Shown: positions 1 to 5,862, counted from the stretch's first letter. The stretch is 5,862 bases of DNA from a virus (IMGVR_UViG_2671180254_000003); one strand, 5' to 3'. The notes: a model not told the origin generated them from the sequence alone. Program-made: numbers and translations.

Positions 1-117
1 TAGCTCCTTCTGATGCCATTCTATTTCAGGAAGGAGTGTCCGTTAAACTCAGGCTACCTCAGGTTATTCGCTTCTGGGCATGGGCGGATCAACAAATGAT
101 AGACGGTAATGCAGATT

Positions 118-136
118 GTAACGCTCGCGGCGTTAC
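118..136. repeat. Palindrome GTAACGC-tcgcg-GCGTTAC inside the replication gene; candidate initiator-binding site (ori element)
   Basis: Perfect 7-bp inverted half-sites around a 5-nt spacer. The same half-site recurs at 327-345 and 361-367. Confidence 0.3.
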
Positions 137-326
137 AAAAAGTGCAATAGATCGCATCACTTTTATGTCTGGTTTTGCTGATGCGTTAATTCAGGTTGGA
201 TGGCTGGTCGAAAATGACGGAGGGCTTTCTCTACCTAACTTTGAACGTCATAACGGAAAAAGCTCTAAAAAAAACGGGCGGTTACAAACGAGCGAGTAAC
301 AAAAATACGCGAACTGAAACGAAAAG

Positions 327-345
327 GTAACGCTGCCAGCGTTAC
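327..345. repeat. Palindrome GTAACGCTG-c-CAGCGTTAC; candidate ori/iteron element within the replication gene
   Basis: Perfect 9-bp inverted repeat with 1-nt spacer. Followed by another GCGTTAC half-site (361-367), a (GAGGAA)x3 repeat (371-388) and two GATC sites (389-392, 401-404). Preceded by an A-rich stretch (300-325). Confidence 0.35.
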
Positions 346-744
346 ACAAACGGATCAAAAAGCGTTACCAGAGGAAGAGGAAGAGGAAGATCTAAATACT
401 GATCTCCCCCTCGCCAAAAACGAGCGTCTAAAAAATTCGAGCCGGAGGCTATTGAGCTGCCCGATTGGTTGCCGGAAACACTCTGGCATGAGTGGGTCCG
501 GTTCAGACAGGCATTGCGAAAACCGATTCGAACGGAGCAGGGCGCTAACGGGGCGATACGGGAACTGGAAAAATTCCGTCAGCAGGGTTTTACACCTGAG
601 CAGGTGATTCGACACAGCATCGCCAATGAATACCAGGGCCTGTTCGCGCCGAAAGGTGTTCGGCCTGAGACGTTGCTCCGACAGGTTAACACCGTCTCGT
701 TGCCGGACAGTGCGATCCCGCCAGGCTTCAGGGGGTAACGGACC

Positions 745-1491
745 ATGAAAAATATTGCGACAGGCGGCGTTCTGGAACGCATCCGCCGACTGACCCCGCC
801 ACATGTAACCGCCCCATTCAGAACGGTAGCGGAGTGGCGCGAGTGGCAACTTGCTGAAGGCCAGAAACGTAGCGAGGAGATCAACCGCCTGAATCGCCAG
901 TTGCGGGTGGAAAAAATTCTGAATCGCTCAGGCATCCAGCCGTTGCACCGTAAATGCTCGTTTGCGAATTACCAGGTGCAGAACGACGGCCAGCGATACG
1001 CGTTAAGCCAGGCGAAATCCATCGCCGATGAACTGATGACCGGGTGTACAAATTTTGCGTTCAGCGGAAAACCTGGTACCGGGAAGAATCACTTAGCGGC
1101 AGCTATCGGGAATCGCCTGCTGAAAGACGGTCAGACAGTGATTGTGGTTACCGTGGCTGATGTTATGAGCGCCCTGCACGCCAGCTATGACGACGGGCAG
1201 TCAGGCGAAAAATTTTTGCGGGAGCTGTGCGAAGTGGATCTGCTGGTTCTTGATGAAATTGGCATTCAGCGCGAGACGAAAAACGAGCAGGTGGTGCTGC
1301 ACCAGATTGTTGATCGCCGGACAGCGTCGATGCGCAGCGTGGGGATGCTGACAAACCTGAACTATGAGGTGATGAAAACATTGCTCGGCGAGCGGGTGAT
1401 GGATCGCATGGTCATGAACGGCGGGCGCTGGGTGAATTTTAACTGGGAGAGCTGGCGTCCGAATGTTAGCCATTCGAGGGTTGTTAAGTAG
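745..1491 (+). CDS. DnaC-like replicative helicase loader (prophage YdaV-like AAA+ ATPase)
   Basis: 248-aa ORF with Walker A motif GKPGTGKNH, Walker B-like LLVLDEIG and DnaC-like overall architecture. ATG 745 lies 6 nt after the upstream stop with a G-rich RBS (AGGGGG 730-735). Confidence 0.9.
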   Translation: MKNIATGGVLERIRRLTPPHVTAPFRTVAEWREWQLAEGQKRSEEINRLNRQLRVEKILNRSGIQPLHRKCSFANYQVQNDGQRYALSQAKSIADELMTGCTNFAFSGKPGTGKNHLAAAIGNRLLKDGQTVIVVTVADVMSALHASYDDGQSGEKFLRELCEVDLLVLDEIGIQRETKNEQVVLHQIVDRRTASMRSVGMLTNLNYEVMKTLLGERVMDRMVMNGGRWVNFNWESWRPNVSHSRVVK

Positions 1492-2489: not shown

Positions 2490-3176
2490 ATGACCCCAAT
2501 AAACATATTTATGACAGTTGCTGATTTCAAACGGCCCAAATTGGAGCTCCCAAACGGGGCAAACAAACTACTACTGCACTCTTGCTGTGCTCCATGTTCC
2601 GGTGAGGTGATGGAGGCGCTTCAGGCCTCGGGAATCGACTACACCATCTTTTTCTACAACCCGAACATTCATCCTCAGAAAGAGTATTTAATTCGTAAGG
2701 ATGAGAATATTCGCTTTGCTGAACAACACGGCGTGCCGTTTATTGATGCTGATTACGACACAGACAACTGGTTTGAACGAGCCAAAGGAATGGAATGGGA
2801 GCCCGAACGAGGGATCCGTTGCACCATGTGTTTTGACATGCGTTTTGAGCGGACAGCGCTGTACGCCGCTGAAAATGGTTTCAGTGTGATCAGCAGTTCA
2901 CTGGGCATTTCACGCTGGAAAAATATGCAGCAGGTTAACGACTGTGGGCGGCGAGCCGTCGCGCATTATCCGGGCATGGTGTACTGGGATTATAACTGGC
3001 GCAAGCAGGGCGGCTCGTCCCGTATGATTGAAATCAGCAAGCGCGAAAAATTCTATCAGCAGGAATATTGTGGCTGTGTGTATTCTCTGCGCGATACCAA
3101 TCTACACCGCAAATCTCAGGGACGCCCTCTTATCAAAATTGGTCAACTCCACTACGGTAAAGAAGAGAAGGAGTGA
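2490..3176 (+). CDS. queH: QueH-like epoxyqueuosine reductase family protein (DUF208, Fe-S enzyme)
   Basis: 228-aa ORF with the DUF208/QueH hallmark motifs as recalled from memory: [45 protein letters not shown]. Start could be ATG 2490 or 2511; neither has a clear SD. Confidence 0.8.
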
Positions 3177-3227: not shown

Positions 3228-3321
3228 GACTGCGGGTGCTTGAGGCTATCTGCTTCAGGCATGAACACCAAAAGGCAGATAGAGAAAAGCCCCAGTTAAC
3301 ATTACGCGTCCGGCAAGACGC
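3211..3321 (+). promoter_or_regulatory. hok-type mRNA 5' leader, copy 1 (tac-like element plus conserved stem-loop); downstream body lost in assembly gap
   Basis: About 90 nt closely similar to 5355..5460 (CTGCGGGTGCTTGAGGCT...AGAGAAAAGCCCCAGTTAACATTACGCGTCC.GCAAGACGC). Contains stem CTATCTGC/GCAGATAG (3246-3253 / 3275-3282). Runs directly into the N run. Confidence 0.6.
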
Positions 3322-3574
3322 NNNNNNNNNNNNNNNNNNNNNNNNNNNNNNNNNNNNNNNNNNNNNNNNNNNNNNNNNNNNNNNNNNNNNNNNNNNNNNN
3401 NNNNNNNNNNNNNNNNNNNNNNNNNNNNNNNNNNNNNNNNNNNNNNNNNNNNNNNNNNNNNNNNNNNNNNNNNNNNNNNNNNNNNNNNNNNNNNNNNNNN
3501 NNNNNNNNNNNNNNNNNNNNNNNNNNNNNNNNNNNNNNNNNNNNNNNNNNNNNNNNNNNNNNNNNNNNNNNNNN
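3322..3574. other. Assembly gap (253 N)
   Basis: Uninterrupted run of N. ORFs 3236..3577 and 3255..3701 in the track are artefacts of translating N. Confidence 0.99.
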
Positions 3575-5167: not shown

Positions 5168-5172
5168 CAAAC

Positions 5173-5203
5173 AAAAACCCCGGATTGATGGTCCGGGGTT
5201 TTT
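5173..5203 (+). terminator. Rho-independent terminator (possibly bidirectional)
   Basis: A5 (5173-5177), stem CCCCGGA (5178-5184) / TCCGGGG (5192-5198) with 7-nt loop, then T5 (5199-5203). Confidence 0.8.
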
Positions 5204-5354
5204 GAAGGAAACAAAACAGAAACAGCAATTGCCGTTACCTGTTGTTACCATGGCAAGTAAACGTATCTCAGGCGAGCGCATTGCGCCGTTCTGACGCAGA
5301 TAAACTAGCCTGGATAGATGGTGCTGGCAATAAAAAATAGCGTTTTCTTATCGG

Positions 5355-5484
5355 TGTCGGTAAGATTGCTGCGGGTGCTTGAGGCTGTCTGCCTCGGGTA
5401 TGTCACTGTAAGGCAGACAGAGAAAAGCCCCAGTTAACATTACGCGTCCTGCAAGACGCTTAACATTAATCTGAGGCCCAATCT
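5355..5484 (+). promoter_or_regulatory. hok-type mRNA 5' leader, copy 2 (putative -10 TAAGAT at 5361-5366, tac-like element 5369-5386, stem-loop 5385-5420, mok upstream region)
   Basis: tac-like CTGCGGGTGCTTGAGG is complementary to the 3' fbi-like sequence at 5749-5764. Stem CTGTCTGCC/GGCAGACAG (5385-5393 / 5412-5420). Leads into the mok/hok reading frame. Confidence 0.7.
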
Positions 5485-5697
5485 ATGTCTCACAAATGTA
5501 GGTTAGCCTCTTACGTGCCGAAAGGCAAGGAGAAGCAGGCTATGAAGCAGCAAAAGGCGATGTTAATCGCCCTGATCGTCATCTGTTTAACCGTCATTGT
5601 GACGGCACTGGTAACGAGGAAAGACCTCTGCGAGGTACGAATCCGAATCGGCCAGACGGAGGTCGCTGTTTTCGTAGACTACGAATCTAGAGAGTAA
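5485..5697 (+). CDS. mok: Mok-like regulatory reading frame (70 aa), in frame with and containing hok
   Basis: ATG 5485 opens the only frame open across the hok start. Length matches chromosomal Mok-type frames (recalled from MokC, which is an N-terminally extended HokC). Whether it is translated is inferred. Confidence 0.5.
   Translation: MSHKCRLASYVPKGKEKQAMKQQKAMLIALIVICLTVIVTALVTRKDLCEVRIRIGQTEVAVFVDYESRE
5542..5697 (+). CDS. hok: Hok/Gef-family type I toxin (HokD/RelF-like small membrane protein, 51 aa)
   Basis: MKQQKAMLIALIVICLTVIVTALVTRKDLCEVRIRIGQTEVAVFVDYESRE shows the Hok family signature (TM helix, LTRK.LCE.R...EVA.F..YES). SD AAGGAG sits 8 nt upstream of ATG 5542. Confidence 0.9.
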   Translation: MKQQKAMLIALIVICLTVIVTALVTRKDLCEVRIRIGQTEVAVFVDYESRE

Positions 5698-5770: not shown

Positions 5771-5789
5771 CCGTTTCGGCGGTTTTTTT
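5771..5789 (+). terminator. Possible 3' end of hok transcript (short GC stem plus T7 run)
   Basis: CCG-tttc-GGCGG followed by TTTTTTT (5783-5789). Stem is weak; the IS1 end abuts immediately. Confidence 0.3.
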
Positions 5790-5862
5790 GGTAATGACTC
5801 CAACTTATTGATAGTGTTTTATGTTCAGATAATGCCCGATGACTTTGTCATGCAGCTCCACC
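5790..5862 (-). mobile_element. IS1 insertion sequence, terminal 73 nt including inverted repeat; element continues beyond window end
   Basis: GGTAATGACTCCAACTTATTGATAGTGTTTTATGTTCAGATAATGCCCGATGACTTTGTCATGCAGCTCCACC matches the IS1 terminus as recalled. The minus strand encodes the InsB C-terminus. Confidence 0.9.
5805..5862 (-). CDS. insB: IS1 transposase InsB, 3' end (partial, continues beyond window)
   Basis: Minus-strand translation gives ...VELHDKVIGHYLNIKHYQ followed by stop (TAA, complement of 5805-5807). Confidence 0.8.
   Translation of the reverse strand, partial: VELHDKVIGHYLNIKHYQ

Follow-up and report, generated by a model that had tools for sequence, protein, structure and literature searches.

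Iteron plasmids combine winged-helix Rep initiators with short repeated initiator sites, inverted copies of which lie near the start of the initiator gene. In phage lambda, the origin (oriλ) occupies the middle of gene O and is made up of iterons, which are 19-bp imperfect inverted repeats, and an AT-rich tract, with extra iterons adding residues to the O protein (PMC7466680). For Rac, a prophage in Escherichia coli K-12, a primer pair named for the origin 'oriJ' has been published (PMC3945230). Here, a 5,862-nt stretch of viral DNA (hereafter the window) was analyzed, which comes from a Rac-like lambdoid prophage of the E. coli/Shigella type and covers its early-right region. We consider it likely that nt 106-390 hold cis-acting replication-origin elements of this prophage inside its own YdaU-like initiator gene, a reading chosen because the layout matches the logic of oriλ (dyad repeats and an unwinding tract in mid-gene). 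A literature search returned no description of the initiator family, the heptamer, the multi-cluster layout or the polypurine tract.

A YdaU-like initiator gene compared with known origins

Window nt 62-738 are 97-98% identical to a gene for a 262-aa protein located between ydaT and the DnaC-like ydaV, and intact copies of this gene occur in 'Escherichia phage Rac' and numerous E. coli genomes. Its full-length product matches PHROG 2509 ('replication initiation protein', 1e-89) and no Pfam family at E≤0.01; a PHROG 'O-like' match covers residues 77-236 only, and no solved relative was found by sequence. In the window, the initiator gene lies directly upstream of the DnaC-like ydaV (Pfam matches IstB_IS21 and Bac_DnaA), the position expected of a lambda-type intragenic origin. 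The features of this region are listed below by coordinates, strand and description.

1-61, no strand assigned: terminal segment of an IS3-family element cutting off the 5' end of the initiator gene; a multi-copy element matches nt 1-65 at 98.5-100% identity
62-738, plus strand: remnant of the YdaU-like initiator gene (codon ~35 to stop), a pseudogene; homology to ydaU-like genes begins at nt 61
106-112, plus strand: degenerate heptamer GTAATGC, which opens cluster A and precedes 118 by 12 bp
118-124, plus strand: heptamer GTAACGC, cluster A, left arm of palindrome 1; most loci keep it at gene nt ~149-164
130-136, minus strand: heptamer GCGTTAC, cluster A, right arm of palindrome 1; match conserved in relatives
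267-274, plus strand: A8 run (lesion 2), two A more than the intact A6, first frameshift; from alignment with an intact relative (L001) and phage Rac
327-333, plus strand: heptamer GTAACGC, cluster B, left arm of palindrome 2; match conserved in relatives
339-345, minus strand: heptamer GCGTTAC, cluster B, right arm of palindrome 2; match conserved in relatives
362-368, minus strand: heptamer GCGTTAC, last iteron, abutting the purine tract (GCGTTAC-C-AGAGGAAG); junction recurs in relatives
370-390, plus strand: 21-nt all-purine run with (GAGGAA)3, a candidate DNA-unwinding element encoding an EEEEEE linker; tract found family-wide
405-411, plus strand: site of a 10-bp deletion (lesion 3), second frameshift; one of two TCCCCCT(AAA) direct repeats lost
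745-1491, plus strand: ydaV, intact DnaC-like helicase loader and partner gene of the initiator (NCBIfam PRK12377, 8e-154; DnaC, 1.7e-91)

In kind, the proposed origin is lambda-like and intragenic, with a different protein family. As in oriλ of lambda and Stx phages, it would lie in the middle of the initiator gene and upstream of a helicase-loader gene, with dyad-symmetric repeated sites followed by a tract predicted to unwind easily and site binding likewise predicted. Iteron copy number alters protein length in both systems, and specificity appears to reside in the N-terminal domain while the C-terminal part is exchangeable. The locus departs from oriλ in other respects. The protein has no sequence match to the lambda O family (neither Phage_rep_O nor any other Pfam match), and the four 19-bp iterons of oriλ are replaced by a 7-mer at 11-12-bp phasing and in mixed orientation. 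The sites form two or three clusters separated by ~200 bp, and one cluster falls in the part of the gene that encodes the putative DNA-binding domain. A polypurine (GAGAA)n or GAGGAA run takes the place of the generic AT-rich block, and the heptamer is nearly invariant across phyla.

The K-12 Rac element (ydaU-ydaV, oriJ) shares the prophage type, the gene order and the DnaC-like ydaV with the window, and the C-terminal 124 aa of the initiators are 81% identical, but nothing else of YdaU is common to both. The N-terminal module of K-12 YdaU is unrelated (annotated DUF1376), and with no copy of GTAACGC in the K-12 Rac locus a shared origin with K-12 ydaU was not borne out. The linker of K-12 ydaU has repeats as well (ATGTTCAAACA, 4-5 direct copies and an inverted copy; L004 2472-2578), which occupy the equivalent linker position, are followed by a ATCCCCCCC direct repeat and are candidates for the iterons of K-12 oriJ. 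With iteron plasmids (RepA, π, TrfA), the locus appears to share short repeated sites spaced by roughly one helical turn, a winged-helix-like fold of the initiator and, in some lineages, inverted copies close to where the initiator gene starts. It differs from them in that the initiator has no sequence match to Rep families, the sites lie inside coding sequence, and the phage module has a separate helicase or loader partner.

Repeats and lesions in the window

The first-pass annotation had described two palindromes with a common half-site, both of which were found in the sequence at 118-136 and 327-345. Palindrome 1 reads GTAACGC-TCGCG-GCGTTAC, with arms that reach 9 nt at 116-138, and palindrome 2 reads GTAACGCTG-C-CAGCGTTAC, with 9-nt arms and a 1-nt spacer. 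An extra half-site (GCGTTAC) also exists, although one position further along than the 361-367 given for it, at 362-368 (AGCGTTAC spans 361-368). Exact heptamers start at 118, 130, 327, 339 and 362 and the degenerate GTAATGC at 106, giving spacings of 12 and 12 bp in the first cluster and 12 and 23 bp in the second; the position of the degenerate unit holds an exact GTAACGC in homologues from Serratia, Rouxiella, Rahnella, Pantoea and Pectobacterium. A 7-mer phased at 12 bp, rather than the 19-bp palindrome, would be the functional unit. GTAACGC/GCGTTAC occurs six times in the window, compared with 0.59 expected, a count reached by none of 200 dinucleotide-preserving shuffles, and five of the six matches fall within 118-368. 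The sites had all been assigned to the linker region of the initiator, which is correct for palindrome 2 and the extra half-site but not for palindrome 1, as the latter encodes a low-confidence loop of the N-terminal domain (residues 49-60).

A single C separates the last heptamer from the purine run at 370-390, which is all purine, only ~52% A+T, and contains the previously noted (GAGGAA)x3 at 371-388. Two GATC sites that had been counted with these repeats are present (389-392 and 401-404), and further ones occur at 87, 150 and 353. GATC is thus locally dense in 1-404, but with 15 copies against 21.7 expected it is not enriched in the window overall, and the GATC sites are not conserved in relatives; GATC was therefore rejected as part of the element.

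Alignment with the intact relative L001 and with phage Rac identified three lesions in the window copy of the initiator gene. The first 103 nt are missing at an IS junction at 61/62, and in L002 the same 65 nt (window nt 1-65) adjoin IS3-type OrfA/OrfB ORFs. The reading-frame break that had been noticed in the repeat region is real and has two components, A8 in place of A6 at 267-274 and the loss of one 10-bp TCCCCCTAAA unit at 405-411, such that the translations of this copy are readable only across three frames. The frame breaks look like real decay rather than programmed events. Sequencing error was considered as their source and rejected: one frameshift is a +2 homopolymer change, but the other is a 10-bp repeat-unit deletion, and an IS has cut the gene as well, which makes true decay to a pseudogene the likelier case. 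As the initiator is a pseudogene, the window heptamers and tract would constitute an orphan origin, able to fire only with a cognate initiator in trans.

Many database copies of the initiator (P0001-P0003, P0025, L085/L086) are likewise frameshifted, truncated or internally deleted, and the lesions fall in A-runs, in the TCCCCCT repeat or in the GAGGAA repeat (as in L085, which reads PVEEED). Inactivation of this gene is thus recurrent, with its simple repeats as hot spots of mutation.

Elsewhere in the window, an IS1A end (5785-5862, 100% identity; median 10 copies per E. coli genome) occupies the 3' side, and the closest protein clusters include partial Shigella proteins. IS ends at both sides of the window, along with the Shigella names among the closest clusters, suggest that it is a short contig of an IS-rich, Shigella-like genome. 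A gene for the tRNA-modification enzyme epoxyqueuosine reductase QueH lies in this phage early region (2490-3176; Pfam 1.9e-65). A complete hok/sok type I toxin-antitoxin locus is located at 5373-5547 and 5485-5697, with an Rfam sok match of 118 bits and a 70-aa ORF carrying the Pfam Hok/gef domain. Positions 3229-3321 resemble 5369-5459 and represent a second copy of the hok/sok leader, followed by a run of N at 3322-3574. Because of this second leader, and because hokD directly follows queH in L001, the masked segment probably hides a second hok-family toxin gene. Finally, a GC-rich hairpin followed by a T-run (aaaaaccccggattgatggtccggggttttt, 5170-5205), situated 3' of a DUF551 gene and a small ORF, resembles an intrinsic terminator.

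Conservation of the heptamers, the purine tract and the N-terminal module

Homologues of the N-terminal 148 aa are common, with a profile search returning at least 3,340 protein clusters (90% identity), and the initiator family is found in phages and prophages of many phyla, its N-terminal domain being without a Pfam model. From species-representative genomes, 75 loci were taken by means of the peptide patterns PNF[ED]RHNG and L[NKG]IDPDA[VA]L, and 73 of them were mapped. These patterns do not overlap the DNA sites, and the sampling is therefore not circular. Scans of viral contigs gave near-identical copies only, and contigs from genomes and metagenomes supplied the diversity instead. In a set of 75 near-identical viral contigs of the E. 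coli type, variable positions numbered 3 of 35 within heptamers (69 of 480 overall), a level of variation too low to be informative.

Across the 73 loci, the density of exact heptamers was 8.6 per kb in gene nt 120-440 and 0.18 per kb elsewhere, and in roughly half of them GCGTTAC ranked first or joint first among the 7-mers of the initial 540 nt of the gene. The two gene positions of the heptamer are shared by homologues with amino-acid identities of 31-98% and from many phyla, including Enterobacterales, Pseudomonadales, Burkholderiales, Planctomycetota and a Thermoanaerobaculia (Acidobacteriota) MAG, and the same layout is present in the sequenced E. coli phage TL-2011b, Xanthomonas phage CP2 and Pseudomonas phage PAN70. 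The two clusters sit at fixed positions (gene nt ~149-197 and ~335-415) with 11-12-bp phasing, each composed of one to three forward copies and then one to three reverse copies. Where sublineages carry a variant, it appears in both clusters together (GTCACGC/GCGTGAC, GTTGCGC/GCGCAAC or CTAACGC/GCGTTAG). Phage epsilon15 has two copies of GTCCGC and two of GCGGAC followed by the same purine tract, and Akkermansia loci use the variant CCGTTAC.

Several other Verrucomicrobiota loci had no clear heptamer clusters. A Verrucomicrobiota subgroup whose proteins start with MRRPWIKIE (L128-L133, L136, L141, L146, L147) is without the two dense clusters and shows only isolated sites, close to gene nt 287 and 368; it may use another recognition sequence or layout. 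At the other extreme, three freshwater metagenome loci (L318, L321, L322) contain 10-11 exact GCGTTAC in the first 470 nt, compared with five in E. coli-type copies. A role of the heptamer as a DNA methylase target was also considered, as methylase genes lie upstream of the initiator in some loci, and was rejected: clustering of the sites is confined to the initiator gene, with fixed phasing, and no methylase adjoins the E. coli-type loci.

Conservation of the half-sites proved to be independent of codon position. Cluster B heptamers are read in frames 0, 1 and 2 across loci: in E. coli, Serratia and others they read xGT-AAC-GCx (G/S/C-N-A) and xGC-GTT-ACx (S/G-V-T), and in Samsonia, Klebsiella-type proteins and TL-2011b they read GTA-ACG-CAA (V-T-Q) and GCG-TTA-CAA (A-L-Q). 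A non-coding copy of the palindrome precedes the ATG in intact E. coli/Shigella-type loci and in several Serratia, Winslowiella and Pantoea loci. In L001, this third 19-bp palindrome (GTAACGCTGCGAGCGTTAC, 2866-2884) spans -32 to -14 from the ATG and overlaps the likely ribosome-binding region; it was also found in L085, L087, L088, L089 and L094 and is absent from the window, having been lost to the IS. Synonymous codons are strongly skewed at the heptamers. Val is encoded by GTT in 69 of 78 peptide-defined sites (88%) and in 169 of 582 cases elsewhere (29%), Asn by AAC in 78 of 80 sites and in 276 of 457 cases elsewhere, and the codon before the site is xGT in 79 of 80 compared with about 17%. 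Moreover, heptamer copy number shifts in 12-bp (4-aa) steps, for example DG-NAGSVT and DG-NAKCNAASVT. Enrichment, frames, non-coding copies and codons thus all indicate that the repeated sites were selected as DNA and not as codons.

The GAGGAA repeat of the window turned out to be the local form of a polypurine tract that is found family-wide (51 loci). For each of these loci, the purine-richest 30-nt window was taken within gene nt 301-549; these windows had a median of 27/30 purines and a mean AT content of 65%, compared with 44% for the loci, and the purine count of the tract was unequaled by any other window, on either strand, in 43 of the 51. Most lineages have a (GAGAA)n tract, whose period-5 repeat runs through coding DNA and is translated as EKRRE, and the tract always lies on the sense strand of the initiator gene. 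Arg within the tract is encoded by AGA in 64 of 74 cases (86%), compared with 21 of 573 (4%) elsewhere in the same genes (genomes >55% G+C). The tract abuts the last heptamer in nearly all mapped loci, with the junction GCGTTAC-CC(N)-AGAGAAG in most of those displayed, and the junction is kept where the heptamer differs (GCGTGACC-AGAGAAG; GCGGACC-AGAGAAG in epsilon15). As judged by comparison of these genes, both the heptamers and the tract show selection at the DNA level.

The N-terminal module, through the tract, is joined to unrelated C-terminal modules (the YdaU C-terminus, DnaT-like PF17948, PF09524 and others), with the module junction right after the tract at the E-run. The downstream partner varies (DnaC-like, DnaB-like or lambda-P-like) around a constant initiator position, as do the upstream neighbors (methylases, ParB-like, antirepressor, YdaT), leaving the N-terminal domain as the sole constant companion of the heptamer sites. 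The loci compared here thus show the heptamers and tract to be linked to the N-terminal module. GCGTGAC-type loci occur in at least three lineages as defined by nearest-neighbor identity, and of ~125 alignment columns only residues 55 and 113 perfectly separate them from the GCGTTAC type. For residue 55, the separation is a direct coding consequence of the heptamer. Residue 113, which adjoins the invariant R112 in a basic helix, is V in 36 of 37 TTAC-type loci and K or Q in 8 of 8 TGAC-type loci. An independent re-test with metagenome loci gave V with GCGTTAC 43 times, K with GCGTGAC four times, M with GCGCAAC once (as in L122) and three exceptions; residue 113 is an imperfect predictor, as two metagenome loci pair Q with GCGTTAC. 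Within both sets of alignments, residue 113 co-varies with the central bases of the heptamer.

A candidate origin and its alternatives

The earlier proposal of an origin with iterons inside the initiator gene gains support from conservation, reading frames, non-coding copies, codon skew and the purine tract, and the combined heptamer and purine signal is most likely a phage replication origin. From these patterns we infer binding, unwinding and origin function. One part of the origin would be the clustered 7-bp iterons (g)GTAACGC(t), direct and inverted at 12-bp phasing, with cluster A (106-136) coinciding with the N-terminal domain loop, cluster B (327-368) with the disordered linker, and, where relatives are intact, a third palindrome in non-coding DNA, from -32 to -14 relative to the start codon. 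The other would be the polypurine tract (370-390) abutting the last iteron. The N-terminal winged-helix/basic-helix domain of the initiator is predicted to bind the heptamers and oligomerize, which may destabilize the adjacent purine tract, and the exchangeable C-terminal module would then recruit the helicase via the partner encoded downstream, the DnaC-like YdaV here and DnaB-like or lambda-P-like proteins in other lineages. The palindrome upstream of the start codon probably has a second role, as an autoregulatory operator.

In an unlikely alternative, the heptamers would be genuine initiator-binding sites for autoregulation or copy control (operator, roadblock, handcuffing), and unwinding and helicase loading would occur elsewhere in the module, for example downstream in or near ydaV. 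Rep proteins of iteron plasmids autorepress through inverted repeats, and the palindrome just 5' of the start codon in intact relatives resembles such an operator. In most lineages, however, the sites lie 150-400 nt inside the gene, and most lack an upstream copy; the invariant juxtaposition of the last heptamer and a purine tract that appears selected as DNA also has the look of an origin unwinding element and not of an operator. Initiation elsewhere could draw on the published 'oriJ' primers (PMC3945230), which map inside ydaV (window 1002-1156) and not in ydaU. The amplicon bears weakly on the window because the N-terminal module of K-12 differs, and the primers were set aside as evidence on the window's origin and taken as a loose locus marker for the K-12 element. 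Furthermore, downstream partner genes are unrelated across lineages, so that no conserved alternative initiation site is apparent. A very unlikely alternative is that the inverted heptamers act as single-stranded DNA or mRNA hairpins or as cruciforms, and not as duplex binding sites, serving for instance as a primosome or loader entry signal read by a DnaT-like C-terminal domain or as a signal for RNA stability or translation. Predicted single-stranded DNA folds of -9.5 to -13.3 kcal/mol (z-scores -3 to -6.9), arms that change jointly in variant lineages in the manner of compensatory changes, and the DnaT-like ssDNA-binding C-terminal domain of many homologues are all compatible with hairpins. 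Pairing does not explain why forward and reverse copies are unequal in most loci (3+2, 2+1, 1+2, 2+0), why the spacers between nested arms are non-complementary (A5 opposite A5 in L092), or why an identical heptamer, needless for pairing, is kept in clusters ~200 bp apart and across phyla, nor why residue 113 follows the central bases. Within the window, sok (5373-5547) was the only Rfam match, and it is the heptamer sequence and not its pairing that is conserved.

An absence of any cis function, with the repeats representing a peptide motif ([GSC]NA / SVT and a charged EEKRRE linker) or a module recombination junction, appears extremely improbable. The sites do encode recurring tripeptides, and N- and C-terminal modules swap exactly at the E-run; yet the motif survives changes of frame and peptide and occurs in non-coding DNA, synonymous positions are fixed, and a period-5 DNA repeat in a period-3 code is inexplicable at the protein level. 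In our comparisons, the frame and codon tests largely refute this reading. A more far-reaching version of the origin reading, which we regard as quite unlikely, is that the heptamer and (GAGAA)n form a pan-bacterial transcription-coupled origin, in which sense-strand purine RNA forms an R-loop beside the bound initiator. As the tract is always on the sense strand, transcription would yield purine-rich RNA in an unusually stable RNA:DNA hybrid, and this hybrid might open up the duplex or, acting like a polypurine-tract primer, even prime DNA synthesis. If true, it would provide a physical basis for the 'transcriptional activation' of phage origins, and residue 113, paired with the central bases of the heptamer, would amount to a simple and re-programmable code for initiator/origin specificity.

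Returning to the intragenic origin as the preferred reading, clusters of gGTAACGCt at a 12-bp phase that end in CC-AGAGAAG would provide an origin signature for a large initiator family. Residue 113 and the central bases of the heptamer would offer one testable specificity contact. The layout would also explain why modules are exchanged at the acidic linker, and compact replicons of origin, initiator and loader are suggested as possible vectors for poorly tractable bacteria. The window itself would represent a decaying prophage that has kept its origin DNA and lost its initiator, and it would need a related phage, resident or infecting, in order to replicate.
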